NCBI GenBank assembly: GCA_043811915.1
Contig: JBDRMS010000011.1
Coordinates: 1 to 63,234, forward strand
DNA length: 63,234 bases
Origin: a bacterium
GTDB taxonomy: Bacteria; Patescibacteriota; Andersenbacteria; UBA10190
Reading direction: 5' to 3'
Shown: piece by piece, positions 16,519 to 57,400 of the stretch
Position numbering within the stretch: the first letter of the stretch is position 1
How the letters are laid out: the number at the start of each line of letters is the position of its first letter
The notes under the pieces: generated by a model
The model's input: the letters and a program-made list of their open reading frames with translations, nothing else
Told to the model about the DNA's origin: nothing
The model's database searches: none
Program-made: the position numbers and the translations under genes

Positions 16519-17923
16519 CTCCTTGCTTCATAGTTTCCAGTATAGTATCTCTCCTTTTATTCGTATAGTTGCCAATTGTCAGAAATCGTTGACACAATAA
16601 GCGCACTTCGGCCGCTATACGCCGTATTTCATCCGAACGATCCATTGTCATCTCAAATTCATCAAATTCTTGCCCACCCCATGGTCTGCATATTTCCAGT
16701 ACCTGTGCCATCCAGTCGGCAATATACTCCATATCATCCTCCTTCATGCCCCGCGTTGTTACCCAGGGCGTTCCCAGTCGCAAAGCCGAAGGATCGGCTG
16801 GCGAGCGCGTCTCCTGCGGCATAGTGTTAAAATTAACCACCAGTCCCGCATAATCCAGAGCCCGAGCCAGCTTCTTTCCCAACAGCGGCGCTTTGTCGGT
16901 TAAATCAATCAGCACTAAGTGTTTATCAGTTCCTCCCGCCACCAGCTTAAAATCACGTCTCGCCAACTCTTCCGCCAGCCGCTTGGCGTTACTCACCACT
17001 CGCCGGGCATACTCCTTGAATTCCGGCTTTAACACCTCCCCCAACCCCACACAAATACCGGCTACGTTGTGATTGTGCGGGCCACCTTGTAAACCCGGCA
17101 GCACCGCCTTGTTTATTTTCTTTATCAAATCCCACTGTGCCAATATAATAGCCCCTCGCCCCGCCCGCAGCGTTTTATGGGTTGTCATAGTTACAATATC
17201 TGCTACTCCAACCGGCGAGGGAATAATGCCGGCCGCCACCAGCCCCGCCTCATGAGCAATATCAGCCATATACAACGCCCCCACCGTCTCGGCTATTGTT
17301 TTTATCTCCTGATGATTAATCAGTCTGGGATAAGCCGTACCCCCGGTAATAATCAGTTTGGGCTTGTAATCTCTGGCAATTCTGGCAATTTCGTTATAAT
17401 CAAAAAGCTGTGTTTTCGGGTTCGTTTTGTACTGCACCGTCTCAAACATACGCGACGTAATGTGCACCTTGCGGCTGCCGCCTAAATACACCAGCTGATT
17501 CGGGTCCGCCTTCTCTCTGGGCTCATAAGACCAGCCGTGCGACAAGTGACCCCCGTCCGGCAGATACATACCCATCATGGTATCCCCCGCTTCCATCACT
17601 GCCAGATAAACCGCCAAATTGGCGTTGCTGCCCGATAACGCCTGCACATTTACATCCCAGTCATCCGGTAAATTAAACGCCCGCCGCGCCCGGCTTATAG
17701 TCAGGCTCTCCAGTTCATCAACGTGCTGGTTCCCCTCGTAATATCGTCGATCCACATTGCCCTCCGAATATTTGTGCATAAACACCGACCCCACCGCTTC
17801 TCGCACCGCCGGGGAAAAGAAATTCTCCGAGGGAATTAAAGACAACTTATTCTGCTGCCGCTCCTCTTCGGCTCTAACGATGCCAAACACCACCGGGTCC
17901 ATTTTTTCGAGAGCGCCACTCAT
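16499..17923 (-). CDS. glyA: Serine hydroxymethyltransferase
   Basis: PLP-lysine motif TTHKTLRAGRG and full-length SHMT-like sequence. ATGA overlap with the upstream thyX-like gene. Confidence 0.93.
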   Translation of the reverse strand: MSGALEKMDPVVFGIVRAEEERQQNKLSLIPSENFFSPAVREAVGSVFMHKYSEGNVDRRYYEGNQHVDELESLTISRARRAFNLPDDWDVNVQALSGSNANLAVYLAVMEAGDTMMGMYLPDGGHLSHGWSYEPREKADPNQLVYLGGSRKVHITSRMFETVQYKTNPKTQLFDYNEIARIARDYKPKLIITGGTAYPRLINHQEIKTIAETVGALYMADIAHEAGLVAAGIIPSPVGVADIVTMTTHKTLRAGRGAIILAQWDLIKKINKAVLPGLQGGPHNHNVAGICVGLGEVLKPEFKEYARRVVSNAKRLAEELARRDFKLVAGGTDKHLVLIDLTDKAPLLGKKLARALDYAGLVVNFNTMPQETRSPADPSALRLGTPWVTTRGMKEDDMEYIADWMAQVLEICRPWGGQEFDEFEMTMDRSDEIRRIAAEVRLLCQRFLTIGNYTNKRRDTILETMKQGGELYGE

Positions 17924-19626
17924 GTCGCCACCCCCGATAATTCTTTTAGCTTGGCCTGAATTTTTTCTTCCTGCCCCCGCCGGGCAAAATCATATTTTCC
18001 CATATTAACACGCATGTGCCACGCTATTAAAGGATACACCTTTTCAATCAATCGAAACTTCTCCTGCTCAATAAATCTATAATCCGAATGTCCCTCTGGA
18101 ATAGTACGCAGTTCCATTTCCCAGAAACACGCCCGCAGGTTCTGCCACTGCATAAACCGCACCCGATGGGCCAAGGTCACCGCATACTGCGCCAATTCAT
18201 GGTCATGCGAGGCAATCTTTTCATACACCCCTTCCGCCCGTTCAACTGCCAAGCGGAAAGCTCCCGCCAGGCCTGCCTCCTCTATATCCGCCGGCACATC
18301 ATAACCATGTTGAATACAAAACTGCTGGCGCTGTTGCGTTAACATGCGATGCCGATGCAGATCCCGCCAACCTCCGATATTCATAATAACTTCAAACCTG
18401 ACGTAAGCACTTTCAAAAGCACGCCCCACTTTTTGCCAACGCTCTCCCCGCCCACTAAGATATTGGTTAATAATTTCTTTCTTACTCAATTCGCTCATCC
18501 CCCGCACCTTGACCAACGTGTCCCCCCATGATGCTCGGTTGGCCGAAGCTGAATACAGCATAGCCGTAATAATTTTCGTCTCGCCTTCACTGTCACTCTC
18601 AACCAAGGTCACCCGCGGACAACTGCCCGCTCCGGCCATCTCCGGCTGCAAATCCGCCAGGTGCTTTCCCGCCAGCGGCGCTACCCGTTGATTGCGACGC
18701 GCCATGTATTCCTGGTACTGCTCCGCCGCTCCCCGCGAGCCGGTATCTTTCAAACGCCGCAAAAATGACGGCACTATTTTGTACAATTCCCGATACGCTT
18801 CCTCCGCCGCCCAACGAATCTCCCCCAGGCGATGCCTGGCACTGCGTGCAATCATGTATTCAAAAGCCTGGCCGTTACCAAACAAGGCTAGTTGCGACAA
18901 GGTTGCTGCCGGTAACAAGCCCCGCACCGCGTCAAACGCCTTTTTCTCCAACACAGACACATTCTCCTTAGGCCAGCGTTTACCCAACCATACTTTAAGC
19001 TTTTCCTTTAGTTCCTCATACGTTTCAAACAACCCGTCCATCGCTTCCCGATATTCATTCTCCAAACCATAACCCATTAGCCGCGGGTCAGTGTAATATC
19101 GCCATTGCCCTCCCATCTTACTCGAATAATCCACATACCTGGTCGACTTCTCAATCGGAGCCAAGCCAATGCGCTGATCTTCAAAATGCTTTATCGCTAT
19201 TTGCGATATCCCTGTAAACACCAGGTGGGTCCCGGCCATCTGGGCAATTGAATCATCACCAAACTGCGCCAGCCACTTGTTATAAAAATTGCGGGCTCTC
19301 GGATTGGAAAAAATACTTTCTACCGGATGCTCGTGCAAAAATTCAACAAAAGCCTGTAAGTCATGCCCATATTTCTCCTCCGACTCCAAAAAAGGCTTCA
19401 GATATTCATCCAAAAATACTCGGCGCAGGTCTCCCTCCGCCCGAGACGTGCGCGAACACAAGGCACCAATTATTTCCGGTGAAAAAACAACTGGCACATA
19501 TACCGACCTATCAAGATTAGTAAAAAACGGAGACAACATCTCCGCCTCCCGCCACCCAAAACTATCCCGTTCAAAGGGCGGCGCAAACTCCGCCAGCTCT
19601 ATTTCGTCATCTGACATCCTATCCAT
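17920..19626 (-). CDS. thyX: Long-form (tandem-domain) FAD-dependent thymidylate synthase ThyX-like protein
   Basis: The C-terminal half carries WRDLHRHRMLTQQ (RHR ThyX motif). The N-terminal half has a degenerate copy (FGDDSIAQMAG...IEKSTRYVDY). Translationally coupled to glyA. Confidence 0.6.
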   Translation of the reverse strand: MDRMSDDEIELAEFAPPFERDSFGWREAEMLSPFFTNLDRSVYVPVVFSPEIIGALCSRTSRAEGDLRRVFLDEYLKPFLESEEKYGHDLQAFVEFLHEHPVESIFSNPRARNFYNKWLAQFGDDSIAQMAGTHLVFTGISQIAIKHFEDQRIGLAPIEKSTRYVDYSSKMGGQWRYYTDPRLMGYGLENEYREAMDGLFETYEELKEKLKVWLGKRWPKENVSVLEKKAFDAVRGLLPAATLSQLALFGNGQAFEYMIARSARHRLGEIRWAAEEAYRELYKIVPSFLRRLKDTGSRGAAEQYQEYMARRNQRVAPLAGKHLADLQPEMAGAGSCPRVTLVESDSEGETKIITAMLYSASANRASWGDTLVKVRGMSELSKKEIINQYLSGRGERWQKVGRAFESAYVRFEVIMNIGGWRDLHRHRMLTQQRQQFCIQHGYDVPADIEEAGLAGAFRLAVERAEGVYEKIASHDHELAQYAVTLAHRVRFMQWQNLRACFWEMELRTIPEGHSDYRFIEQEKFRLIEKVYPLIAWHMRVNMGKYDFARRGQEEKIQAKLKELSGVAT

Positions 19627-45425: not shown

Positions 45426-46637
45426 CTAAAACACCAGCCACCCTGGTTTAAACAGCATGAGTAGTCCTAAAATAACCATCAAAATACCACCAATCAGCGT
45501 TGTCCATTTACTGTACTTCCCCGTTAATCCAATTTTGTCAAAACTGTAAAGTGCCAGAGCAAAAACTATTACATCATCCAGTATGTAAGCTGCCATATAC
45601 AAACCAACATAAAATTGTCTTCCCCACCACGCCAGTTGATTCACGTCTAATATCTTGGTGAACACCTGGGGAATGCCGATCGAGCAGGCAAATTCAAAAA
45701 TATTGACCGAAAAAGCCAGACCGATAATGCCCAGCGCCACCAGTAGTGTCAGCGGCTTCGACACTAACTTCTTTGCCCGCTCTTCAATCTTCGCCTTCTG
45801 CTCCTCGCCGGCTACGCTGCACACCGGCACAAAAGTCCACCACTTGTATAAGAAGTAGCCACCACTGCCCATTGCCATAAATGCAATCAGTGGCATCACA
45901 ATGTTATCCAGTGCCACAAAATCCCAAACCAGCAGCCACACCATCAAAATGAGATAGTACATAATCCCCTGGGCCAAAATAAACAAACCGGCGAACTGCC
46001 ACATCCTCTTTCTTGACCTTGCCTGTGACAACAGCAACAGCAACATAACCAACACCCACATGGCACAGGGGTTAAATCCGTCTATCAAACCCAAAACCGC
46101 CGACAGCACCGGCAGCGAAAAACTCCCTACATCAATCACCGTGCCTATCAGCGGCAAACTTATCATCAGCGGCTCATCAACCGGACACGGTTCCATCTCC
46201 GAACACACGCTAGCTGACAAAACACTGGCTACTCGCGCCCCGCCTGCTGCAATATCAGCAAAGCTTACATTATTCCCTTCTTCCACTAATAGTTCCCGCC
46301 ATCTCTCGCCCGTGGTCTCGGCCGAATCAAAACCAACCATAAGCGTTCCCCTGATTAACGCTATTGGTGTCGCTTTTTGTAATTCATACGTATTCGTCAC
46401 TTGCTCAAACAACTGCCAGTTATCTTCATCAGCCAGGTCGTAATACTGCACCCGTATCTGCGGTTGCTCCCTCGTTAGCTCATCCAAGAAATCTCCCGCA
46501 TCCCGACAATGGGTACATCCCTCCCGTACAAATAGATGCACAATTCCCGCTTCCTCCGCTCCTGTCACCGGCCAGGCCGGCACCAGCAAAACAGCCAGCA
46601 AAATCAGCCCGAGTCCGCCTTTAGATAACTTCGTCAC
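45426..46637 (-). CDS. Fusion of an exported glutaredoxin/thioredoxin-like domain (CTHC) to a DsbD/CcdA-like thiol-disulfide transporter membrane domain
   Basis: Signal peptide, FVREGCTHCRDAGDFL, then 6-8 TM helices with Cys in the TM segments (NPCAMWVL, FEFACSIG). GTGA junction with iscU. Confidence 0.7.
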   Translation of the reverse strand: MTKLSKGGLGLILLAVLLVPAWPVTGAEEAGIVHLFVREGCTHCRDAGDFLDELTREQPQIRVQYYDLADEDNWQLFEQVTNTYELQKATPIALIRGTLMVGFDSAETTGERWRELLVEEGNNVSFADIAAGGARVASVLSASVCSEMEPCPVDEPLMISLPLIGTVIDVGSFSLPVLSAVLGLIDGFNPCAMWVLVMLLLLLSQARSRKRMWQFAGLFILAQGIMYYLILMVWLLVWDFVALDNIVMPLIAFMAMGSGGYFLYKWWTFVPVCSVAGEEQKAKIEERAKKLVSKPLTLLVALGIIGLAFSVNIFEFACSIGIPQVFTKILDVNQLAWWGRQFYVGLYMAAYILDDVIVFALALYSFDKIGLTGKYSKWTTLIGGILMVILGLLMLFKPGWLVF

Positions 46638-47011
46638 TTCTCCAGTTTACTACGATAATCCGCCAATGCCTTTTGCAACGCCTCCACCCCTAATACCGAA
46701 CAGTGCTTTTTAATCGGCGGCAATCCGTCCAGGGCATTTGCCACTTCATCGCAGGAAAGCCTAAGCGCTTCTTCTATATTTTTCCCTTTCACAATTTCCG
46801 TCACCATTGAACTACTGGCAATAGCTGCCCCACAGCCAAAAGTTTTAAATTTAGCGTCAACTATCACCCCTTTTTTCACTTTTATGTACAGCTCCATAAT
46901 GTCTCCGCACACCGGGTTGCCAATCCTTCCTACACCACTTGGCTCTTTCATTTCTCCCACGTTACGCGGGTTCATTAAGTGATCCTTAACTTTGGCACTG
47001 TAATCAAACAT
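46634..47011 (-). CDS. iscU: Fe-S cluster scaffold protein IscU/NifU-like
   Basis: NPRNVG, GNPVCGDIMELYIKV, FGCGAAIASSS, KHCSVLG motifs. The start is probably MFDYS. Confidence 0.9.
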   Translation of the reverse strand: MFDYSAKVKDHLMNPRNVGEMKEPSGVGRIGNPVCGDIMELYIKVKKGVIVDAKFKTFGCGAAIASSSMVTEIVKGKNIEEALRLSCDEVANALDGLPPIKKHCSVLGVEALQKALADYRSKLEK

Positions 47012-48155
47012 TTGTTCTCTCCTTTTCAATTACCAAGGGCGACATGGCCCGCAATCTTTCAACTATCCCCGGCAATATTTCAATCACTCTGTCTACTTCT
47101 GCTTCAGTACTATCTTTACCCAGCGAAAAACGCAATGAGCCATGCGCCAGCTCATGCGATAATCCCATAGCCAGCAGTACATGTGAAGGCGTGAGGCTCG
47201 CCGACGAGCAAGCCGAACCACTGGAAGCAGCCACTCCCACAGCATCCAAATGCAACACCATAGCCTCACCCTCAACATGCTCCACAGAAATGTTTACATT
47301 GCCCGGCAATCTTTTTTTCGGATGGCCATTTAATTTTACTCGCTCAATTCTGTCCGTTAGACCCGCAATTAATCTGTCTCTCAACAACGTTATTCTCTTC
47401 GCCTCCTGCATTCTCTTTGCCGCCAGGCTGGCTGCCTCACCCAGGCCTACTATTCCCGGTACATTCTCTGTACCGGCCCGGCGCCTGCTCTCCTGATCTC
47501 CTCCGTGCAGTAAAGATTTCAACCATACTCCTTTTCTAACATAAAGCGCCCCCACCCCTTTAGGTCCATAAAACTTATGGGCCGACAGGCTTAACAAATC
47601 AACATTCAATTCTCCAACATCAACTGGCACCACGCCCACCGTTTGCACCGCATCCGTGTGAAATAAAATTTTGTGGGCCCGCGCCACCTCGCCTATCTCT
47701 CTAATCGGCTGAATGGCTCCTATTTCATTGTTAGCATGCATAACAGAAATCAAAACAGTTTCATCTGTTATGGCTCGTTCCACATCCGCTACATTTACCA
47801 ATCCATATTCATCAACCGGCAAATATGTCACCTCAAGACCCTCCTTGGCTAAGAATTCAGTTGTCTTCAGTATTGAATGATGCTCAATAGCCGAAACAAC
47901 CATGTGACCTCTCCTGCCGTGTAAAACCATGTTATTAGCCTCCGTACCGCTGCCCGTAAAAACCATTTCCTCTGTCTGCGCTCCTATCAATGCCGCCACT
48001 TGGCTGCGAGCCTTGTCCACCGCCGCCCGCGCCACCCCGCCGTGCCAATGCTGTGAAGATGCATTTCCGTAATATTTACCAAAAAAAGGCTGCATCGCCG
48101 CGACCACCCTTTTATCACAAGGTGTAGTCGCCGCATGGTCTAAATAAACTTTCAT
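47004..48155 (-). CDS. iscS: Cysteine desulfurase (NifS/IscS class)
   Basis: SAHKFYGPKG PLP-lysine motif and SSGSACSS active-site Cys loop. Confidence 0.92.
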   Translation of the reverse strand: MKVYLDHAATTPCDKRVVAAMQPFFGKYYGNASSQHWHGGVARAAVDKARSQVAALIGAQTEEMVFTGSGTEANNMVLHGRRGHMVVSAIEHHSILKTTEFLAKEGLEVTYLPVDEYGLVNVADVERAITDETVLISVMHANNEIGAIQPIREIGEVARAHKILFHTDAVQTVGVVPVDVGELNVDLLSLSAHKFYGPKGVGALYVRKGVWLKSLLHGGDQESRRRAGTENVPGIVGLGEAASLAAKRMQEAKRITLLRDRLIAGLTDRIERVKLNGHPKKRLPGNVNISVEHVEGEAMVLHLDAVGVAASSGSACSSASLTPSHVLLAMGLSHELAHGSLRFSLGKDSTEAEVDRVIEILPGIVERLRAMSPLVIEKERTNV

Positions 48156-48208: not shown

Positions 48209-48463
48209 ATGCCTAACAAAAAAGAATATCCGCGCAGCAAAGAAGGATCTAATATCGCTAAAATAGTTGTCGACCGCGATCTGTGTATAGCCGCCCAATC
48301 TTGTCTGGCTCCCGCCCCCGGTACTTTCGAGATAGACGGTGAAAACAAAGCTATTGTTATAGATGCCAACGCCGTCGACGATGATGCTCTAATACTAGCC
48401 GCCCAGTCCTGCCCCACTAGAGCTATTCTCCTTTTTGACAAAGAAGGTAGGCAGCTAAATTAA
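48209..48463 (+). CDS. Small ferredoxin (single-cluster type)
   Basis: VVDRDLCIAAQSCLAPAPGTFEID...AAQSCPTRAI pattern typical of 3Fe/4Fe single-cluster ferredoxins. Confidence 0.75.
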   Translation: MPNKKEYPRSKEGSNIAKIVVDRDLCIAAQSCLAPAPGTFEIDGENKAIVIDANAVDDDALILAAQSCPTRAILLFDKEGRQLN

Positions 48464-49719
48464 TGGATTTCAAGTACCTCATCATCGGCGGCGGCGTTGC
48501 TGGCACCACTGCCAGCAACGCCATCAGGCAAAACGACAGTCAAGGCTCAATCACCATTGTCAGCGACGAACCTCATTATCTGTACTCCCGCATTATGCTG
48601 TCCAAACCCAACTTCTTTTTGGGTAAAATTCCTTTCGAACAAATCTGGCTTAAGGACAAATCGTGGTACGAGCAAAATAAAATAGAATTTATCGGTGGCA
48701 AAAAGGCCATTCAGCTAGACCCGGACAAGAAAATAATCAAGCTGGACGACGACACAGAAATTAAATATGACAAGCTGCTCCTGGCCACCGGCCTAAATGC
48801 CCGCCACTTATCTGTACCCGGTGCCGACAAGCAAGGCGTCTTCTACCTACGCACTCTGGACCATGGTAAGTCCATCATTGAAGCCGTCTCCTCTGTAAAA
48901 AAAGCTGTGGCCATCGGCGGAGGTTTCATTAGTTTCGAAATGGCCAACCTGCTCCAGCTATCCGGCGCTGAAGTCTCCATCATTATTCGTGAATCCCTTT
49001 TCTGGGACCCGATTCTAGATGCCACAGCCAGCAAAATTGTTGAGACCGCCATCACCAAAGCCAATGTTAAAATCGTCCGTAATGCTGAAATAAAACAGGT
49101 GGGTGGTAATAGCCACGTCACCAGCGTGACCTTGAGTGATAATACCACTCTTCCCTGCGACATGGTTATATGCGGTATTGGCGCCAACTGCGACACCGGG
49201 TGGTTAAAAAAATCAGGCCTTAAAACAGACCGCGCTATTTTAGCCGATCAATATCTTAAAACTAACCTGCCTGACGTGTGGTCGGCCGGCGATGCCACCG
49301 CCTTCGACGACCCCATCCTCCAGGAAATTGTTCACCTGGGTAATTGGGTCAACGCCCAGGAACAAGGACGTATCGCCGGCCTAAATATGGTGGGCCAGAA
49401 GCAATCCTTTACCTTCGTTTCCTACTACACTACCCACGGCTTTGACATATCTGTCACCTTCATCGGCAATGTCCGCCCCAAGAATGAATTCCAGACTATA
49501 GTCCGTTCCGGACCAGGGGAAGGCGTGCACACTCAATTATTAGTGATAAACGACGAATTGGTCGGCGCCGTTCTCATTAACCAAACCCAAATCCTGCGTC
49601 CCATCACGCAATTAATCGAAAAAAATGTTAACATGGCAGATAAACACGAGCAGCTGTCTGACCCTAACTTCGACTTAAACACACTCATTCCCCAACAACC
49701 ATCATGCCCAACAAACTAA
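48463..49719 (+). CDS. FAD-dependent pyridine nucleotide oxidoreductase (ferredoxin-reductase-like)
   Basis: IIGGGVAGTTA FAD motif, a second Rossmann motif VAIGGGFISFE, and WSAGDAT. TAATG junction with the ferredoxin gene. Confidence 0.8.
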   Translation: MDFKYLIIGGGVAGTTASNAIRQNDSQGSITIVSDEPHYLYSRIMLSKPNFFLGKIPFEQIWLKDKSWYEQNKIEFIGGKKAIQLDPDKKIIKLDDDTEIKYDKLLLATGLNARHLSVPGADKQGVFYLRTLDHGKSIIEAVSSVKKAVAIGGGFISFEMANLLQLSGAEVSIIIRESLFWDPILDATASKIVETAITKANVKIVRNAEIKQVGGNSHVTSVTLSDNTTLPCDMVICGIGANCDTGWLKKSGLKTDRAILADQYLKTNLPDVWSAGDATAFDDPILQEIVHLGNWVNAQEQGRIAGLNMVGQKQSFTFVSYYTTHGFDISVTFIGNVRPKNEFQTIVRSGPGEGVHTQLLVINDELVGAVLINQTQILRPITQLIEKNVNMADKHEQLSDPNFDLNTLIPQQPSCPTN

Positions 49720-50639
49720 AATACGCCATCGTTCTAGCCCTGGGAACTGCCCTCATATCCGGCACCAACACCTTCCTTACTAAAACTGCTGTCACGGCTG
49801 TATCAGATCCCGTTGTCTTCACCTTTCTTAAAAACACCGTCGTGGCCCTCATCCTAATCGGCCTTATTGCCCTTACCAGCCGACGACACGAACTCAAAAA
49901 CCTGTCTCGTCGCGACATTACAAAACTTCTGGCCATTGGTGCTATTGGCGGCAGTCTTCCCTTCATTCTCTTTTTCACCGGACTCACTCTGGTTCCCGCC
50001 GTCACTGCCGGTTTTATCCATAAAACACTGTTCATCTGGGTTGCCCTGCTGGCCGTGCCGTTTCTCAAAGAAAGAATTGGCAATTTACAACTGGCCGCCC
50101 TTGCCTTGCTCCTTGGCGGCAACCTGGCCTCATTTGGTTTGCCCAAACTTACTTTGGGCACAGGCGAACTAATGATTCTGGCTGCCACTATTTTATGGGC
50201 TATGGAAAATATCATTGCCAAAAAAGCCCTGGCCGGGCTTTCCAGTCCCCTCGTAGCCAGCGCCCGCATGGCAATTGGCTCTTTAATAATTCTAGTTATC
50301 ATAGTTACGCAGGGAAAAACAGCCCTACTGTTCAACCTATCCACTTTTCAGTGGATCTGGACACTCATAACCAGTCTTCTGCTAACCGGATATGTCCTAA
50401 CTTGGTACACCGCGCTTAAAGCAGCCCCCGCCACCCTGGTCGCTAGTCTGCTCGTCCCTGCCACTCTGGTCACTAATATCTTAACGGCTATCTTCGTAAC
50501 TCATACTTTCCCCACCACCCAGTTGATAAGCGGGACGTTCCTGGCCCTGGGCGTCACCTTCATTATCTCCCGAGCCAATAAAATATCTCCTGCTCATGGA
50601 CGGCGTCGCCCGTTGCTCTCGTTATTCCCTCGGTCCTAA
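49704..50639 (+). CDS. EamA/DMT-family transporter
   Basis: Ten TM helices in two EamA-like halves. Confidence 0.75.
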   Translation: MPNKLKYAIVLALGTALISGTNTFLTKTAVTAVSDPVVFTFLKNTVVALILIGLIALTSRRHELKNLSRRDITKLLAIGAIGGSLPFILFFTGLTLVPAVTAGFIHKTLFIWVALLAVPFLKERIGNLQLAALALLLGGNLASFGLPKLTLGTGELMILAATILWAMENIIAKKALAGLSSPLVASARMAIGSLIILVIIVTQGKTALLFNLSTFQWIWTLITSLLLTGYVLTWYTALKAAPATLVASLLVPATLVTNILTAIFVTHTFPTTQLISGTFLALGVTFIISRANKISPAHGRRRPLLSLFPRS

Positions 50640-51321
50640 TCGGCTGCACCTGTGCGGCCCCGACCTAAACCGCGAGGTACTATCTTACATCAATGAAAAC
50701 ATTTCCGACGACGGCCTGATCAGCATCCTAAAACAGTTCAAAACCTTATATCCCTACCTCCAGCAAATCGCCCACGCCAACCAGATCAAAGACCCCTTCG
50801 ACCCCCGCGTCGTTGAAGCCTACTGGATAGGTAACAGCCTGCTCGACACCATCACTGCCAAAATTTACTATCGACATCTCACCGATAATGTTCAAGTTCA
50901 AAAAATGTCATCCTCCAAGCAGGTAGATAAGTTAAAAGACAAACTCGCCCAGGGCGCTCTCATGCATCATTCCTTCCACGTTTTAAATATTTGGCGCCGC
51001 ACCGGCCATCACGATATCGAACATACCCCGGACACCATAGACAAATGCTGCGTCACCTGGGGTAAAATTCTTAAAGTATCCGGCCCCACTCTAATCGTCT
51101 CCCGCCAGCCCATCTTTGGGCCCCCAAAAAAGCAAAAAATTATCCGCCAGCTGGAACACGCCTCCCTGCTCGACGACGTCAAAGCAGGAGACTACATCTC
51201 CATCCATTGGGACACTCCATGCGAAATTATCACCCCTAAACAAGCCGCCAACCTGACTAAATACACCCGGCTGTCAATAAATCTCGCTAACCAAACCCTA
51301 ACTCACCAAACCTCCATATAA
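50596..51321 (+). CDS. Conserved hypothetical protein with an N-terminal CSRYSLGPNRLHLCGP motif
   Basis: The N-terminal Cys motif looks like a DUF family I cannot name with certainty. The C-terminal part (CCVTWGKILKV...GDYISIHWDTPCEIITPKQA) loosely recalls the HypC/HupF OB-fold logic. Confidence 0.5.
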   Translation: MDGVARCSRYSLGPNRLHLCGPDLNREVLSYINENISDDGLISILKQFKTLYPYLQQIAHANQIKDPFDPRVVEAYWIGNSLLDTITAKIYYRHLTDNVQVQKMSSSKQVDKLKDKLAQGALMHHSFHVLNIWRRTGHHDIEHTPDTIDKCCVTWGKILKVSGPTLIVSRQPIFGPPKKQKIIRQLEHASLLDDVKAGDYISIHWDTPCEIITPKQAANLTKYTRLSINLANQTLTHQTSI

Positions 51322-51333
51322 CGTTATATGGAG
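51312..51333. repeat. 22-bp perfect palindrome CTCCATATAACGTTATATGGAG; copy 2 of the element at 1628-1657
   Basis: Verified base by base. It contains the TAA stop of the upstream gene and ends 13 nt before the ATG at 51347. Confidence 0.8.
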
Positions 51334-51346
51334 TACTTTCCACCCT

Positions 51347-51775
51347 ATGTCTAAACTCCAAGTGTGGCTGTTTGGCAATCCGGATTTTAATCCCGACGCC
51401 CTGCCTTTAAAGCTCCTGCCTGAACTTCAACAGCGCCTGCCCAGCTTTGATCTTATCATCAAAGACCCTAACGAAGAGTGGCGCCTGTCGAAAAAACTCA
51501 TCATCATTGACACCGTCCAGGGCATCAAAAAAATCACTACTTTCACCTCCCTCGACCAGTTTCAAAACGCACCCAACATAACAGTCCATGATTTTGATCT
51601 GCTCACCAATCTCAAATGGTTATCCAAATTAAAAAAACTCCCGCCCTTCCTGATCATCGGCCTGCCCGCTGGTATTTCAAAAAAAGAAGCTTTCAATAAA
51701 ATCATCGCTATTCTTACGCCCATTTCATTTTCAGGAAGTGGGAAGCGCAGCTCATGCACGGATCATACGCCCTGA
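51347..51775 (+). CDS. Hydrogenase maturation endopeptidase-like protein (HycI/HyaD family, divergent)
   Basis: VWLFGNPDFNPDALP (cf. GNxxxxDD), LIIIDTVQG, TVHDFDL and FLIIGLP match the order of the metal-ligand and core motifs of [NiFe] endopeptidases. It lies next to the hydrogenase genes. Confidence 0.55.
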   Translation: MSKLQVWLFGNPDFNPDALPLKLLPELQQRLPSFDLIIKDPNEEWRLSKKLIIIDTVQGIKKITTFTSLDQFQNAPNITVHDFDLLTNLKWLSKLKKLPPFLIIGLPAGISKKEAFNKIIAILTPISFSGSGKRSSCTDHTP

Positions 51776-53003
51776 TCAACTTTTCCATCTCAAGCTGAAT
51801 CTCCGCCTGGCTCAAATTTTGCGGCAACAGCTCTTCAATTCGTCTACCCACATCCTGCTCAATGTTCACCTGGTTTTGCCCCGTCGGCACCACGATAGCA
51901 CCAGTGGCTACCTTGCCGTCTTCCCCAATCTGTACCCGGTGATACAGTGTGCCTCGTGGCGCCTCCACCACCCCTACACCTAAACCATATTTTCTGGTCG
52001 GCTGCGCCGGCGGCTCCTGCTTAAACTCCGTATTGCTTAACATCTCTACTGCACTATCTAGTGAATGCAAAATCTCAATGGCTTGCGCCAGATTATTGTG
52101 AAAAACATTCGTCGACGGAAACAGCTTTAAGGCTTCCTTGGCCTCCTGCCTCGTCTTTTCATGCAGCGTATTCTTCGATAAATTAAGCCGCGCCAGCGCC
52201 CCCACCATAAAAGATTCTCCCCGATATTGGTACCCGGAAGCCTGGGAATAGGGGATTACCACCCGCTCCAAATGATCCCGCCAGTCTCCCTCCGCAATCA
52301 CCGCCCCCGAATCATTTTTTATCTCTCCTTCCAGAAAAGTAAACGGGTTCCCCACCAGCGCCATGTAGTGCGTCTGGCGGTCAAATTTAAATTCACATTT
52401 CTTTAAAATATCAATCAGCCGCAAAACGGCCGGCCGCACGTCTTCAAGTTTTTTCTTAGCCTTGGTCACTTCTACCTGGTCCGGCACCTTTAAGAAACCG
52501 CCGATCACCGGGTTGATCGCGTGCACGCTGCGCCCGGCGATAATCTCCGCCAGATAGTTGCCCGCCGCCTTGATTGCAAACGCGTCGTGCAGCAACTGAT
52601 GCTGCTCCTCATCATTCTCGTCAAACTCCAGAAAGTTGTCTTTGCCATATATGTCCGGCAAAGCAAACAAGTACAGGTGCAAAGCGTGATCACGAATCAA
52701 CAGCGCCGCCACCGTCAGACGCTTCATCACCATACTCTGCTCTGACGGAGAAATCCCCAGCGCTTTCTCACACGATTCAATCGAGCACAACAAGTGCGCA
52801 TTGGAACACGTGCCGCATATCCGTGCCAGTAATTGCGGTAGCGCCACGTATGGCTTACCTCGCATGGCCTGGGTATAAAATCTCTTAAACTCCCTAATGG
52901 CAAACTCCACATTTTCCACTCTTCCGTTACGCACTTTCACCGTCAGTGAAGCCGCCCCCTCCACCTTTGTTATTTCATCTAAAGAAAGATCAATGTTGTG
53001 CAT
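51714..53003 (-). CDS. [NiFe] hydrogenase large subunit, cytosolic group-3-like (429 aa)
   Basis: N-terminal RICGTCSNAH and C-terminal DPCMSCASH nickel-iron ligand motifs, followed by a 7-aa extension FLKMKWA. Confidence 0.9.
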   Translation of the reverse strand: MHNIDLSLDEITKVEGAASLTVKVRNGRVENVEFAIREFKRFYTQAMRGKPYVALPQLLARICGTCSNAHLLCSIESCEKALGISPSEQSMVMKRLTVAALLIRDHALHLYLFALPDIYGKDNFLEFDENDEEQHQLLHDAFAIKAAGNYLAEIIAGRSVHAINPVIGGFLKVPDQVEVTKAKKKLEDVRPAVLRLIDILKKCEFKFDRQTHYMALVGNPFTFLEGEIKNDSGAVIAEGDWRDHLERVVIPYSQASGYQYRGESFMVGALARLNLSKNTLHEKTRQEAKEALKLFPSTNVFHNNLAQAIEILHSLDSAVEMLSNTEFKQEPPAQPTRKYGLGVGVVEAPRGTLYHRVQIGEDGKVATGAIVVPTGQNQVNIEQDVGRRIEELLPQNLSQAEIQLEMEKLIRAYDPCMSCASHFLKMKWA

Positions 53004-53469
53004 ACTTCCTCAAAGCCGCATTAACCAACTCCACAAACTGATCCGGGTTCATTGGACAACCCGGCAACTCCGCGTCAACCTTTATAATCTCTTTTAGCGC
53101 CTGCACTTTTTCCAGATGATGAAAACGCTCCATGATAAAACTAATTTCCTGTTTGGTTTTGGCATCAAAAGTATTGCGCTGGCCGGCCGGCATACCAATT
53201 ACTGCACACGCCCCCACCGCCACCACCATGTCCGACTTACTGCGTATCTCCTCCAGTTTCTTCTTTTGTTCCTCTGATGATATCGCCCCTTCCACAAAAG
53301 CCACGTCCAGCTCATCCAACACGTTCTTTGTCTGCAATACCCGCGCGTGCCTAAAGTCAATTAATTTACGCCACTCCTGCCAGTGATCATTCAGCACCTC
53401 CGTAAACACTATGGTCGAATCTTCACAACAGGTAAAAGTAAACCACCCCACCCGCAGCTTTCTGCTCAT
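52990..53469 (-). CDS. [NiFe] hydrogenase small subunit, truncated NuoB-like form (159 aa, four Cys, no Tat signal)
   Basis: WFTFTCCEDS, VAVGACAV and LPGCP correspond to proximal [4Fe-4S] ligand positions. There are only 4 Cys in total (C14, C15, C88, C138). No RRxF signal peptide. Confidence 0.8.
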   Translation of the reverse strand: MSRKLRVGWFTFTCCEDSTIVFTEVLNDHWQEWRKLIDFRHARVLQTKNVLDELDVAFVEGAISSEEQKKKLEEIRSKSDMVVAVGACAVIGMPAGQRNTFDAKTKQEISFIMERFHHLEKVQALKEIIKVDAELPGCPMNPDQFVELVNAALRKYAQH

Positions 53470-54431
53470 ACCTCAACCGGCGTCAGCGCCTCTCTATCCG
53501 CCAGCACCGCGATAATATTGTCCGCCGCCAGTTCTGACATAGCCGACCTCGTTTCCTGTGTGGCCGACGCCGTGTGCGGCGTCAATATCACATTGGTGCA
53601 TTCCGCCAAACCAGGAGCCAGTTCCGGCTCGTTTTCTAAAACATCCAGAGCCGCTCCCGTTATTTCCTTATTCTGCAAAGCCGTAACCAGCGCCGCCTCA
53701 TCAACCACTGGCCCGCGCGACGTGTTAATAAGTAAGGCAGTTTTCTTCATCACGCCCAGCCGTTCCTTGTTTATCAGATGTCTGGTCGCCTCGACCAACG
53801 GCACATGCAAAGACAGCACGTCCACTTCCGGCAACATAGTGTCCAGCTCGGGATAGAATTTAGCGCCTGTCGCTTGTTCAAATTCATCGCTTGGTTTCAA
53901 GTCGCTGTACGCCACTTTCATACCCAATCCGGCTTGTGCCTGCTTCCCTACTCCACTGCCTATCCTACCCAAACCAATAACTCCCAAAGTTTTACCTTGC
54001 AACTCTGTACCCAACAACAACATCGGCCGCCAGCCCTCATACTTTCCGTCTCGTATGAACTGGTCCGCTTCAACTATCCGCCGCGCCAGTGACGTCATTA
54101 AGGCAATAGTGTGGCCAACCACCGCCTCCGTCAGCACACCAGGCGTGTTAGTCACCACTATTCCTTTGGCCGCCGCCGCCTTGACATCAATATTATCATA
54201 GCCCACCGCGTAATTAGCAATTATTTTGAGCTGCCCGCCCGCCTCGCCAATTTCTTCCGCGCCGATCTTATCAGTTAACAGTGACAGTACAGCGTCATAC
54301 TCTTTCAATGCCGCTACTAATTCATCCCGCGATACCAAACTTTCCTCCTCCCGCATCACCACCTTGTGCCCCGCCTCTTTTAACTTGTTAACTCCCGCCT
54401 CCGGAATTTTGTATGTAATAAATACTTTCAT
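53466..54431 (-). CDS. D-isomer-specific 2-hydroxyacid dehydrogenase (glyoxylate/hydroxypyruvate reductase-like), 321 aa from the internal ATG
   Basis: GLGRIG NAD(P) motif and the catalytic R (TSRGPVVD), E (LENEP) and H (TPHTASAT). The start MKVFITYKIPE at 54431 is preferred over the ORF-track start at 54575. ATGA junction with the small subunit gene. Confidence 0.88.
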   Translation of the reverse strand: MKVFITYKIPEAGVNKLKEAGHKVVMREEESLVSRDELVAALKEYDAVLSLLTDKIGAEEIGEAGGQLKIIANYAVGYDNIDVKAAAAKGIVVTNTPGVLTEAVVGHTIALMTSLARRIVEADQFIRDGKYEGWRPMLLLGTELQGKTLGVIGLGRIGSGVGKQAQAGLGMKVAYSDLKPSDEFEQATGAKFYPELDTMLPEVDVLSLHVPLVEATRHLINKERLGVMKKTALLINTSRGPVVDEAALVTALQNKEITGAALDVLENEPELAPGLAECTNVILTPHTASATQETRSAMSELAADNIIAVLADREALTPVEV

Positions 54432-54540
54432 ACCCCCATCATAAAACTTTTTCTCTTGACACGCTATAATAATCTGGCTACCATCTTTCCGTTCCGTCCT
54501 TTGCCAATAAAATACCTTCCCCTTAAAAAAGGCTGAAACA

Positions 54541-54960
54541 ATGAGGCCAACAAAAAAGCAGCTCGATCTACTCAAACGCTACACAAAGCACGGCGCTCCC
54601 TTCCCTACCACTAAAGAGGCCTGCTCCACCTTAATTAACTTTCTCTTCTACGGCGAGCGTGGCCCGCAAAACAATTGCTCTGCCCGTCTCGCTCTATTCC
54701 GCCGATGGACCGGAGCCACCGTCAAAGTAGTCAGAAGCAACCACCGCTGTCGCGGACGCCTGGGCCAAGTAATTGGTTGGCGCATGCGCTCAAAAGACGA
54801 AATCGCGCAACTACTAAAAGCACCAGCGAGAACAAACAGCCCCTTTCCTTTTATGGCTATTGTCAGACTAGATAGAATCGACCGCCCCATCGCTTTTTCT
54901 CTGTCTGATCTGAAAGTAGTCAACCACGGCCGGCAAAAGCTCCTCTTTGACCTCATTTGA
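54541..54960 (+). CDS. Hypothetical protein (139 aa), divergent from the hydrogenase operon
   Basis: The ORF length is the only support. No family recognised. Confidence 0.4.
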   Translation: MRPTKKQLDLLKRYTKHGAPFPTTKEACSTLINFLFYGERGPQNNCSARLALFRRWTGATVKVVRSNHRCRGRLGQVIGWRMRSKDEIAQLLKAPARTNSPFPFMAIVRLDRIDRPIAFSLSDLKVVNHGRQKLLFDLI

Positions 54961-55051
54961 AATCCTAGAGCAGCCTCTTAACCCAGCCGTGCTTTTTTCT
55001 TTCTGGAAATAAAGCTGGACGGCTGTCCCCCAGTATCTAGACTGATATGAT

Positions 55052-57400
55052 ATGCACATTGGCCGCGCCAGCTTGTTTAAACTACTTCTGCCAGCAGTAC
55101 TAGTAGCCATCGCCGCCTTATTCCTTTCTTCTCTGCCTCAAGACCGGGAAAAGGAAGTAGCCGTGCCGACCGACGCCGGTCAGCCACACCTCACTCTAAC
55201 AACTGGAGAAAGTATCATCCAAACTTTCCTGGGTACCGGCAAGCCCATCGCCGGACTGGTACTATTCTCACCTCTGGAGAAGCTTGGGTTAAGGTCCGCC
55301 CAGGTAGAAATTTACGATCAGAACGACAACTTACTATCTAAAAGCACCATAGACCGCACCGAATATCGCAACGACAAACTAGCCCTAATTTTTGGCATCA
55401 AGCCAATTGCCACCAACGCCAAACAGCCTCTAAAAATTAAGGTGACTGGCTTAAGTAATCAGCCTGTCCCGCTACTCGTTAACGTAGAAAGTAATTATCT
55501 AGGCGGAAATCTACAAAACCACCAGTTATCCGGGCCAACCAGCGACATATCCTTTTCCTTAATTCATCCTTTGCCTACTCAATTTGCCACCAGGCAAGGA
55601 GTAAAAATTGGTTTAATTGTACTTCTGGGTAGCGTATTAATAGCCCGTCTGCCAAAACATCGCTACTTGACCACCACTTTGTTACTGATAATAACCTTAC
55701 CCCTGGCCACCGGCGGCTTCTGGTTCTCGAGCGGCCAGTGGGGCATGTCCGACTGGGATTTGTTTGCCCCCATGAATGAAGGCTACCGTCAAGCTATTAT
55801 CAATTATCACGCTTTCCCCTTCTGGAATCCCTACACCTTCGGCGGCGTGGCGGCCTTAGGTGACCCCGAGTTTCCTGTAATATCTCTAAGCTTTCTCTAT
55901 ATTCTGTTAGTCGGAGTTCCCCTCGGCTTTCGCCTGGCTATTTACACCTCAATAATTTTAAGCGGCCTGGGCATGCTCGCTTTAAGCAAACGTTTGGGCC
56001 TGACCGCCCAAGCCGCCCTGCTCACCGCCATTGCCTTTCCTCTTAGCACTTCCATACTGCATAGATTCGTGGAGGGGCATACCCAATACTTTGCCATCGC
56101 CTGGATTCCCTGGATTTTCTGGGCCTGGCTCGGCGCTTACAGAAAAAGGAGCAGCGGATTAATCTGCGGCCTCTTCCTTGCTCTCACTTTCTACCAGGGC
56201 GGCATATATATTCTCTTTTATATTCTGCCGGCCCTTATTGCATTCATCTGGCTAGCCCAAAAACCTTTGACCGCTCTTCGCACAACCCTGTCCGCCGGCT
56301 TGTGGTCGTTCGGTCTGGCCGCTTTCAAAGTTTTACCAGTCCTGGCCTGGATAAAAGAATTCCCCGATGACTTTTATCACGTCTCAAGTTTCTCTCTGCC
56401 CTATTGGGTCGACATCTATTTGCGGCGACACCTGCATGGATCATCAATTCTGCCCAATCAAAGTGGCGGCTGGCACGAGTACGGCTCCTACATCGGTTTT
56501 GTTGTTCTTGGTCTTGCCATTTTAGGCTTGTCGCAAATAAAAAGCTGCCGGGTAGTACGCGTACTGCTTTTGGGTTTTGTCACTACCTTGTTAATCGCCT
56601 CTGCCGGCCCGGCCCTGGTCCCTGTCTTCGACGTCATAACCTGGCTGCCACGCTCCAATATAACCCGCCTGGCAATTTTTAGCGTCTTTACAGCCGCACT
56701 GCTAGCCGGCCTTGGTCTTGATACCCTGCAAAAACACAGCAATCGGTGGGGACACTACCTTGCCCCCACTTTGGTTGGCCTTATTGCCATCGACCTAATG
56801 AGCCTGGCTTACCCCATGTCAGAGATGGCCTTTACCGTGCCGCCGGTTGTCCCATCAGTTATAGTAGCCCCCTACCCCATCGCTTATACTTCTGACACAT
56901 ACTCTGTCCGCATCAACGGAGTGGATGAACCACGCACCTACGCCGCCACTCTGGCTGGCTGGGGAACGCTAACCTACCGACCCAACACCGCCCCACCGCT
57001 GGCCGCCATACCAGACAACAAGTATATTCATTCCTCTGATCCCGCAGCACAAGTGAGACTAACATCGTGGACGCCTAACCAAGCACAGCTGGAAGTTATC
57101 ACCCGGCAGAAAACCACCATAACCCTAAACGGCAATTACTCCCGCGGCTGGCACGTTAACAATCAGTTAGCCGACAACAACAATGGCCGGCCAGCTGCCA
57201 CTATGCCATCCGGCCGGCATTTGCTCAACTTCGAATACCGTCCCTCCGGCTACCCGTCAGGCCTCATCATCACGCTCGTAACCATGCTGCTCGCCAGCCT
57301 TCAAATTATCTTTTTACTCCCAAAGACACCAGCGGCGTTCCGGGAAAACACACCGAGTAGTCAGTATGACCCAGCACCAGCGCCGGCGCCTTTGCTTTAA
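55052..57400 (+). CDS. Large polytopic membrane protein (782 aa), possibly a GT-C/YfhO-like glycosyltransferase
   Basis: N-terminal anchor plus a soluble ~170-aa domain, then more than 10 TM helices and a C-terminal soluble domain. The family assignment is tentative. Confidence 0.5.
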   Translation: MHIGRASLFKLLLPAVLVAIAALFLSSLPQDREKEVAVPTDAGQPHLTLTTGESIIQTFLGTGKPIAGLVLFSPLEKLGLRSAQVEIYDQNDNLLSKSTIDRTEYRNDKLALIFGIKPIATNAKQPLKIKVTGLSNQPVPLLVNVESNYLGGNLQNHQLSGPTSDISFSLIHPLPTQFATRQGVKIGLIVLLGSVLIARLPKHRYLTTTLLLIITLPLATGGFWFSSGQWGMSDWDLFAPMNEGYRQAIINYHAFPFWNPYTFGGVAALGDPEFPVISLSFLYILLVGVPLGFRLAIYTSIILSGLGMLALSKRLGLTAQAALLTAIAFPLSTSILHRFVEGHTQYFAIAWIPWIFWAWLGAYRKRSSGLICGLFLALTFYQGGIYILFYILPALIAFIWLAQKPLTALRTTLSAGLWSFGLAAFKVLPVLAWIKEFPDDFYHVSSFSLPYWVDIYLRRHLHGSSILPNQSGGWHEYGSYIGFVVLGLAILGLSQIKSCRVVRVLLLGFVTTLLIASAGPALVPVFDVITWLPRSNITRLAIFSVFTAALLAGLGLDTLQKHSNRWGHYLAPTLVGLIAIDLMSLAYPMSEMAFTVPPVVPSVIVAPYPIAYTSDTYSVRINGVDEPRTYAATLAGWGTLTYRPNTAPPLAAIPDNKYIHSSDPAAQVRLTSWTPNQAQLEVITRQKTTITLNGNYSRGWHVNNQLADNNNGRPAATMPSGRHLLNFEYRPSGYPSGLIITLVTMLLASLQIIFLLPKTPAAFRENTPSSQYDPAPAPAPLL

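Follow-up and report, generated by a model that had tools for sequence, protein, structure and literature searches.

The CPR hyd2-type [NiFe] hydrogenase locus of an Andersenbacteria contig and a proposed ferredoxin and FAD-reductase redox partner

Introduction

Patescibacteria are abundant, ultra-small and mostly uncultured bacteria, and a central part in their fermentative and symbiotic way of life is ascribed to H2. In the passages drawn on here, the study of candidate phyla radiation (CPR) genomes by Jaffe et al. (2020; BMC Biol 18:69, PMC7304191) split the group 3b-related hydrogenases of these organisms into two clades, hyd1 and hyd2. The same passages describe hyd2 as a long branch with a truncated small subunit (mean 164 aa against about 250 aa) and without proximal beta (iron-sulfur, Fe-S) and gamma (NAD-binding) subunits, a HypC-like family, a distinct family of Fe-S proteins and a PF07992 FAD/NAD(P) protein being encoded close to a subset of members, and they state that the function of hyd2 'remains uncertain' (PMC7304191). 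Our search for later literature on hyd2 returned none. Here we analyse a hyd2 locus on the 63,234-nt contig JBDRMS010000011.1 (assembly GCA_043811915.1, Andersenbacteria UBA10190), which as a whole is referred to as the window and to which all coordinates without a locus label refer. The hydrogenase is encoded on the minus strand behind a D-2-hydroxyacid dehydrogenase (HADH) gene and converges with an operon for a ferredoxin, an FAD reductase and putative maturation proteins. We propose a hyd2 heterodimer that would be joined to NAD(P) by a ferredoxin and FAD-reductase electron path and matured by a protease and a DUF6390 protein, with the HADH gene recruited to the operon; as a whole we hold this account to be probable, though by no means secure.

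Among better characterised enzymes, HoxY, the small subunit of group 3d HoxFUYH hydrogenases, carries the proximal cluster only. HoxY is short (189 aa; PDB 5xf9) and is matched by the hyd2 small-subunit profile, and in group 3d enzymes the connection of H2 with NAD(H) is made by a separate flavoprotein module, as it would be in the system proposed here. The SHI and SHII hydrogenases of Pyrococcus and Thermococcus (group 3b, HydADBG; PDB 9nez and 5yxy) resemble it in being cytosolic and NAD(P)-linked, in the size of the large subunit (~428 aa) and in the short tail that follows the DPCxxCxxH motif.

Results and discussion

A two-subunit hydrogenase of the hyd2 clade

The window encodes a [NiFe] hydrogenase large subunit of 429 aa (51714-53003, minus strand; PF00374, E-value 5e-30) and a small subunit of 159 aa (52990-53469, minus strand; PF01058, 1.5e-21), preceded by HADH as the first gene of the operon (53466-54431, minus strand; PF02826, 4e-57; PF00389, 2e-29). 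An earlier note on this DNA, made from the letters alone, had described these three genes as translationally coupled, and reading of the open reading frames (ORFs) bears this out: the ATGA at 53466-53469 combines the HADH stop codon with the small-subunit ATG, and 14 nt (52990-53003) are shared by the genes of the small and the large subunit. The HADH gene starts at an ATG at 54431 preceded by a GGGGG Shine-Dalgarno-like run; its frame remains open to a TTG at 54575, an extension that would overlap the divergent gene at 54541-54960.

Both Ni-Fe ligand motifs read in the earlier note are present in the large subunit, RICGTCSNAH at residues 61-70 and DPCMSCASH at residues 414-422, and together with the glutamate of KVEG and the arginine of EAPRG they are invariant in 15 family members with 61-100% identity. 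The family members end in H-FLK followed by a tail of variable length. In the small subunit, an 18-sequence profile aligns to residues 3-149 only of the 261-aa delta subunit of P. furiosus sulfhydrogenase I (9nez_A). As the alignment ends at delta residue 149, the C-terminal, ferredoxin-like domain of ~110 aa that holds the medial and distal clusters in the group 3b enzymes is missing, and the small subunit is, by this comparison, reduced to its proximal [4Fe-4S] domain, in agreement with the truncation that had been proposed. The truncation is uniform in all 18 aligned small subunits, and called genes of relatives encode proteins of 162-173 aa. The conserved cysteines are C14, C15, C88 and C138, with an N-terminal CC pair where Pyrococcus has CxxC. 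There is no twin-arginine leader, the first cluster cysteine being residue 14 already, and the cytosolic location suggested earlier is supported.

Large-subunit scores point to group 3b as the nearest characterised group. A profile of the large-subunit family (A1) scored 257 and 256 bits against the 3b alpha subunits of P. furiosus (9nez) and T. kodakarensis (5yxy), the best values among PDB sequences, followed by MvhA of group 3c (208 bits), HoxH of the more distant group 3d (147 bits) and FrhA of group 3a (138 bits). The best NCBIfam matches were the Thermococcales 3b alpha subunits ShyA (250 bits) and HydA (220), with FrhA at 121 and VhuA at 109, all far under the equivalog cut-offs. We take the large subunit to be group 3b-related and of the CPR hyd2 type, a placement that comes from profile scores and the published tree and whose limits count against the overall account. 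It differs from the SHI/SHII enzymes in that EGA stands in place of EGH.

The locus as a whole is a further member of CPR hyd2 as described in the cited passages of PMC7304191, because it agrees with them in host, in small-subunit truncation, in the lack of beta and gamma subunits and in its PF07992, Fe-S protein and HypC-like neighbours. The core of the system and its Patescibacteria host with a 3b-related large subunit are thus as published in 2020; the minimal hydrogenase was already known, and the novelty that had been claimed for its architecture falls away (PMC7304191). What the window lineage adds to that core is the translationally coupled HADH gene. The same passages make no mention of reductase::small-subunit fusions, of operon frequency, of a HycI-like protease or of a link to 2-oxoacid:ferredoxin oxidoreductase (POR) and acetyl-CoA synthetase, all of which are treated below.

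The distribution of the family fits this assignment. Thousands of relatives are present in the protein database, and those of the closest 120 that have an informative source name all belong to Patescibacteria (Kerfeld-, Veblen- and Parcubacteria). When each GTDB species was represented by one genome, a relative was found in 334 species; the best 80 of these 334 species loci (numbered with the prefix L below) are almost all from Patescibacteria, some records of metagenome-assembled genomes having generic or other labels, and the nearest named relatives are Andersenbacteria with 72-73% identity. The gene content of the window is typical of CPR. Several relatives' loci come from GW2011 and RIFCSP genomes, which are reportedly among the datasets sampled by the hyd2 study.

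Pfam searches of 40 of the window ORFs of at least 130 aa and of ten locus ORFs found no genes for the subunits that connect group 3 hydrogenases to their electron carriers (HyhB/HyhG, HoxEFU, MvhD or FrhB type), and those relatives' loci that were annotated with Pfam likewise revealed no group 3b beta or gamma gene (AsrA/AsrB-like, HyhB/HyhG) and no HoxEFU. Of the earlier statement that the operon has neither diaphorase nor Fe-S partner genes, the first part therefore stands for the ORFs scanned with Pfam, and the second is true of the minus-strand operon only, as a ferredoxin gene and an FAD reductase gene open the convergent operon. The evidence supports a two-subunit, cytosolic [NiFe] hydrogenase, predicted from its conserved residues to be catalytically intact, without canonical group 3 diaphorase genes.

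A truncated small subunit, missing beta and gamma genes, the change of EGH to EGA and scores far below the equivalog cut-offs could also be expected of a decaying or non-catalytic paralogue of a four-subunit 3b hydrogenase, retained as a remnant or a sensor. The conservation pattern contradicts this: the four Ni-Fe cysteines, the proton-path glutamate and the canopy arginine remain invariant down to 61% identity, every aligned small subunit is truncated in the same way, the pair occurs in 334 species together with dedicated protease-like and chaperone-like genes, and the hydrogenase gene pair of the window has no frameshift or internal stop. We consider the decay explanation effectively refuted and have rejected it.

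The ferredoxin and FAD reductase as candidate redox partners

Converging with the hydrogenase operon, five packed plus-strand genes at 48209-51775 encode a ferredoxin, an FAD reductase, an EamA transporter, a DUF6390 protein and a putative protease; the junctions are, in this order, overlaps of 1, 16 and 44 nt and a gap of 25 nt. The ferredoxin (84 aa; 48209-48463, plus strand; PF13370 and PF13459) has the motif CxxAxxC...CP, found in 43 of 44 members of its family, which we take to be the signature of a [3Fe-4S] monocluster ferredoxin. The reductase (48463-49719, plus strand) combines PF07992 with a Rubredoxin_C/Reductase_C domain, as expected of an FAD-dependent NAD(P)H:ferredoxin oxidoreductase, and its best NCBIfam matches are PadH and ferredoxin-NAD+ reductases of the HcaD type. 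Class I P450 chains, ring-hydroxylating dioxygenase chains and PadH of phenylglyoxylate:NAD+ oxidoreductase share this domain build and the pairing with a monocluster ferredoxin, which in the window is of the CxxAxxC...CP kind. Those systems end in an oxygenase or a 2-oxoacid oxidoreductase, whereas the chain proposed here would end at a [NiFe] hydrogenase; we know of no characterised pairing of such a ferredoxin-reductase chain with this type of enzyme. The diaphorase of group 3d differs in turn, being NuoE/F/G-like with FMN and several Fe-S clusters, and is unrelated to the window's PF07992 reductase, which has two dinucleotide-binding domains, and its free monocluster ferredoxin.

To place these genes among relatives, ORFs were called in the best 80 of the 334 species loci and searched with ten window proteins. 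The small and large subunit genes are adjacent or within about 1 kb of each other in nearly all loci with an upstream region; the small-subunit match of L079 is 3 kb away. Of the 58 loci that are informative for the reductase gene, the other 22 having flanks too short for it to be seen, 42 have it no farther than 10 kb from hyd2, as do 22 of the 33 loci flanked on each side by 8 kb or more. Its most frequent position is directly upstream of the small-large pair on the same strand (24 loci), followed by a place farther upstream on the same strand, mostly in a NifS-NifU-ferredoxin-reductase series (12 loci), a downstream cluster like that of the window (4 loci) and other orientations (2 loci); it is absent from 16 loci with adequate flanks. 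A ferredoxin gene on the same strand adjoins the reductase gene in 34 of 39 cases.

What argues most strongly, in our view, for the reductase working in physical contact with the small subunit is the occurrence of predicted proteins in which the two are one chain. In L077 (Lloydbacteria), a 629-aa ORF contains a full-length reductase, a linker rich in Pro, Ala and Ser, and a full-length small subunit, and L059 has the same junction. With the L077 fusion as query, at least 14 clusters at 90% identity were found in the protein database whose members, 570-629 aa long, carry PF07992 and PF01058; their linkers of 2-40 aa are unrelated in sequence. Unfused reductases are 75-80% identical to the L077 protein, and most other fusions are 45-54% identical to it, with one (P0122) at 75%. 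As unfused reductases are thus nearer to L077 than most fusions are, fusion or fission must have happened more than once. In L094, a reductase::small-subunit fusion gene is followed directly by genes for the large subunit, the protease-like protein, DUF6390 and EamA.

Conserved synteny, incorporation into the hydrogenase operon and in-frame fusions all back the first of two alternatives in the earlier note, namely that the hydrogenase docks onto the ferredoxin and FAD reductase at 48209-49719, and suggest that these two proteins are the redox partners of hyd2. The Ni-Fe site would exchange electrons with the proximal cluster, and the next carrier would be the separately encoded [3Fe-4S]-type ferredoxin, standing in for the lost medial/distal-cluster domain. 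From the ferredoxin they would pass to the FAD of the NAD(P)H:ferredoxin oxidoreductase, which resembles putidaredoxin reductase and PadH, for a net reaction H2 + NAD(P)+ <-> NAD(P)H + H+. In relatives with a POR beside hyd2, the ferredoxin could also accept electrons from that enzyme. Anatomy, synteny and fusions are observations, whereas the route of the electrons, the way the reaction runs and the nucleotide preferred are inferred.

Several observations weigh against this proposal. The 16 informative loci without a reductase, mostly of the Kerfeldbacteria type, have no ferredoxin within 10 kb either; the ferredoxin-reductase pair occurs without a nearby hydrogenase in L093; and the fusion locus L094 shows no adjoining ferredoxin. 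The pair very often adjoins NifS/NifU, in the window as elsewhere, and may serve Fe-S cluster assembly primarily. The potential of a [3Fe-4S] ferredoxin may be too positive for efficient H2 evolution. Finally, a scan of 51000-55200 for sigma-70 promoters and intrinsic terminators gave counts near the shuffled expectation and is uninformative on transcript structure.

The main rival or complement to an NAD(P)-linked path is electron delivery from POR. In about 12 of the 80 species loci, and additionally at L092:11171-15878, genes for POR alpha and beta either separate hyd2 from the ferredoxin-reductase pair or diverge from hyd2. Divergent adjoining genes occur in L063, L066, L067, L070, L072, L078, L080, L081, L083, L085, L086 and L088, an ADP-forming acetyl-CoA synthetase accompanies POR in 10 of these 12 (the exceptions being L066 and L086), and where the upstream region is available the POR block sits between the NifS-NifU-ferredoxin-reductase block and hyd2. 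The enzyme might then be a ferredoxin-dependent, H2-evolving fermentative hydrogenase whose donor is ferredoxin reduced by POR, with the FAD reductase only balancing ferredoxin against NAD(P)H, and the existence of the ferredoxin as a free 84-aa protein would suit such a role. It is the reductase, however, and not the ferredoxin, that is joined to the small subunit in at least 14 clusters, the Pfam scans detected no POR gene in the window ORFs that they covered, and CxxAxxC ferredoxins of the [3Fe-4S] type are not the usual low-potential acceptors of POR. We regard this alternative as unlikely, while giving it some weight.

A second alternative arises from the genes upstream of and divergent from the ferredoxin gene, which encode the cysteine desulfurase NifS (47004-48155, minus strand; TIGR03402, 539 bits, above the cut-off of 531) and the scaffold NifU (46634-47029, minus strand; TIGR03419, 185 bits, just under the cut-off of 188). 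Adjacency of NifS, NifU, ferredoxin and reductase genes recurs in at least 14 loci besides the window, comprising L001, L007, L008, L011, L015, L047 and L048 as well as the NifS-NifU-ferredoxin-reductase loci L063, L067, L078, L080, L081, L083 and L085. The recurrence hints that the pair may supply Fe-S cluster assembly as well. Should that be its actual role, the nearness to hyd2 would mirror no more than the hydrogenase's need for Fe-S clusters, and the partner of hyd2 would be another protein; the NifU-domain-ferredoxin...reductase arrangement of L093 and the hyd2 loci without the pair nearby are in line with such a division. The 24 loci in which the pair is inside the hyd2 operon, often without NifS/NifU, speak against it, and in-frame reductase::small-subunit fusions are hard to reconcile with a role in maturation, so that we find this explanation distinctly improbable. 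In L001, a 403-aa gene upstream of hyd2 was considered as a counterpart of the 403-aa Trx-like membrane protein of the window (45426-46637) and rejected, the two not being homologous.

The hydroxyacid dehydrogenase as a recent addition to the operon

The second alternative in the earlier note was a previously undescribed pairing of H2 turnover with 2-oxoacid reduction through HADH. The HADH protein has both its catalytic and its NAD-binding domain, PF00389 and PF02826 scoring over their cut-offs, and its sequence reads GxGxxG with the catalytic motifs SRG, ENEP and TPHTAS that supply the Arg-Glu-His set. Among NCBIfam models it is nearest to glyoxylate reductase PRK13243, whose cut-off of 455 bits it misses with 339. 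We class it as an unremarkable member of the glyoxylate/hydroxypyruvate reductase branch that depends on NAD(P)H. Enzymes of this family have no Fe-S or flavin group; with no one-electron cofactor in HADH, the only link to the hydrogenase would be through free NAD(P)H and not by direct electron transfer.

The order HADH-small-large is conserved in close relatives only. Coupling as at the ATGA of the window is kept in L007 (large subunit 88% identical), L175 (86%), L008/L010 (81%) and L009 (77%). At 87% identity, HADH in L061 is already split from the small subunit by a 442-aa gene on the opposite strand (L061:3357-4685), and L176 (77%) has no HADH upstream at all. Across the species loci with enough upstream sequence, HADH precedes the hydrogenase in 2 of 71 (81-87% identity) and in none at 73% identity or less. 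The 80 closest HADH relatives in JGI metagenomes are 46-76% identical, and 79 of them are not beside a hydrogenase; the remaining one is on the same contig as L007.

A dedicated H2:2-oxoacid oxidoreductase system, with HADH as functional partner and glyoxylate, hydroxypyruvate or pyruvate as substrate, could draw on the retained coupling and on the transfer from H2 via NAD(P)H to a 2-oxoacid being thermodynamically downhill. With coupling possible through free NAD(P)H alone, the operon link broken or missing at high identity and nearly all HADH homologues located away from hydrogenases, we consider it very improbable. HADH as a diaphorase subunit was rejected on the cofactor content of the family together with the distribution data. 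Its narrow and broken distribution and its lack of a one-electron cofactor make the pairing a recent operon recruitment, neither a new coupling mechanism nor a diaphorase substitute, and HADH is not a hydrogenase subunit. We posit that the gene was recruited before the small-subunit gene in one young lineage, most plausibly being co-expressed for the sake of a shared NAD(P)H pool, where the enzyme could act as a second NAD(P)H sink in fermentative redox balance or consume NAD(P)H derived from H2. It may be observed separately that hyd2 loci repeatedly gather 2-oxoacid redox enzymes, oxidising in the case of POR in the relatives listed above and reducing in the case of HADH in the window lineage.

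Putative maturation genes

We interpret the 142-aa protein at 51347-51775 (plus strand) as a divergent endopeptidase of the HycI type. Within its family no match recurs except PF01750 (HycI), found in 11 of 16 members with a best E-value of 3.8e-5 (24.0 bits, cut-off 23); the window protein itself falls below this cut-off (E 0.025, 14.9 bits) and matches TIGR00072 with E 0.009. Invariant in the family are D17, D55 (IIDTV) and H81 (HDFD), a D/D/H set that may correspond to the metal-binding triad of HybD. Compared with HycI and HybD, the protein is too divergent for a significant profile match to PDB sequences, the family profile yielding only chance matches there (GST theta, Fur), and an hhalign comparison of the family with E. 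coli HycI was not significant (probability 0.2%). A single-sequence AlphaFold2 model reached a predicted local distance difference test score (pLDDT) of only 43, too low for a fold search. In 65 of 73 species loci the gene converges with the large-subunit gene at a distance of no more than 2.5 kb. In the window the two 3' ends overlap convergently by 62 nt (51714-51775); such an overlap is seen in 37 of 73 species loci and arises from non-conserved C-terminal tails of either protein.

Upstream of the protease gene lies that of the DUF6390 protein (241 aa; 50596-51321, plus strand; PF19927), present beside hyd2 in 57 of 68 species loci. An AlphaFold2 model from a 40-sequence alignment reached a pLDDT of 85.9 and a predicted template-modelling (TM) score of 0.85, and in a Foldseek search of the PDB the top four matches to the C-terminal ~80 residues were all HypC, with target-normalised TM scores of 0.58-0.81 (2z1c_B, 0.73; 3vys_A, 0.81; probability 1.0). 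Sequence comparisons gave weak signals to PF01455 (E 0.0098 and 0.0018) and to E. coli HypC by hhalign (E 0.025, residues 189-218 only), and hhalign against HypD gave nothing. The invariant residues C151 and H204 are, by inspection, at the positions of HypC Cys2 and His51. The C-terminal domain is thus alike to HypC/HybG in predicted fold and in its invariant Cys and His; HypC, however, is a free protein of ~80-90 aa with Cys2 at its N-terminus, whereas in DUF6390 the HypC-like OB-fold domain begins at about residue 150 of 241, and since it lies behind an N-terminal domain its cysteine of the essential type is internal. That N-terminal helical domain of ~150 aa is rich in Cys and His, with invariant C7, C20 (CGPD) and HHxxH (HHSFH) and no structural match. 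We found no literature on DUF6390. The modelled fold and its conserved residues indicate that DUF6390 is probably a large-subunit chaperone, which together with the protease would mature the large subunit.

The EamA/DMT-family membrane transporter (49704-50639, plus strand; PF00892) accompanies the locus in 34 of 57 species loci. In-frame fusions of an N-terminal EamA to a C-terminal DUF6390 occur at L034:11657-13333, L038:11642-13333, L042:11714-13393 and L059:3524-4771, all on the minus strand, and thus join the HypC-like protein to a membrane transporter in one predicted chain.

The Pfam search of window and locus ORFs described above found neither HypA-F nor radical-SAM genes, and HypD or HypE was seen within 10 kb in only one of the 80 species loci, the other 79 having none. 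In that locus (L044:11865-13921), canonical HypC, HypD and HypE genes follow directly after the protease-like gene, which shows that hyd2 can sit with standard Hyp machinery; hypE is cut by the contig end, and no DUF6390 gene was seen in this locus. At L083:12203-14855 (minus strand), a HydG gene (TIGR03955, 562 bits, cut-off 312) follows the protease-like gene, adjoined by a gene for a 422-aa HypC::HydE protein whose parts match HypC TIGR00074 with 49.5 bits (cut-off 48) and HydE TIGR03956 with 287 bits (cut-off 255). Radical-SAM maturases of the [FeFe] type are here joined to a chaperone domain of the [NiFe] type, as also at L057:2-532. An exhaustive search of representative proteins yielded 15 further representatives matched from the first HypC residue into HydE, and all ten that were scanned with NCBIfam have HypC and HydE domains; members of this fusion family are numbered within P0361-P0378, of which P0363 (881 aa) and P0371 (906 aa) are triple HypC::HydE::HydG fusions. 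Some members come from Omnitrophota, with an NCBI name of just HydE. Our literature search on HypC-HydE fusions found none.

Other features of the window

An Rfam scan of the window matched no RNA family, and there is thus no riboswitch known to Rfam at the operon. The plus strand has an extreme overall GC skew of -0.26, with values of about -0.45 to -0.6 at third codon positions. As the sign is the same for genes of either strand, the asymmetry is tied to replication or mutation and not to transcription; past ~58 kb it is far weaker (third-position skew -0.02 to -0.22). Elsewhere, a 568-aa ORF at 17920-19626 contains two stretches matching the ThyX (Thy1) domain, a length about twice that usual for ThyX.

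Implications for hyd2 and Patescibacteria

The link between HADH and the hydrogenase is a local, recent gene arrangement and not a new metabolic principle. Hydrogenase specialists may find the reading of DUF6390 as HypC-like and the HypC::HydE(::HydG) fusions of more interest than the locus itself. Taken jointly, the observations could describe hyd2 as a self-contained system, with a P450-type FAD reductase and a [3Fe-4S] ferredoxin as a diaphorase non-homologous to known ones, its own maturation kit, and HypC::HydE/HydG in some relatives, a combination that we put forward as doubtful. If it were true, the kit would pair a HycI-like protease with the HypC-like DUF6390 protein, itself tied to an EamA transporter, and in some relatives a HydG-type tyrosine lyase, and not HypEF, could supply the [NiFe] site with its carbon monoxide and cyanide ligands. 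hyd2 is the most divergent hydrogenase clade of Patescibacteria, and for its function, left open in 2020, there is now a concrete proposal: a [3Fe-4S] ferredoxin and an FAD reductase would serve as its diaphorase, as suggested by the operon arrangement in 24 species and by at least 14 seemingly independent clusters of reductase::small-subunit fusions.

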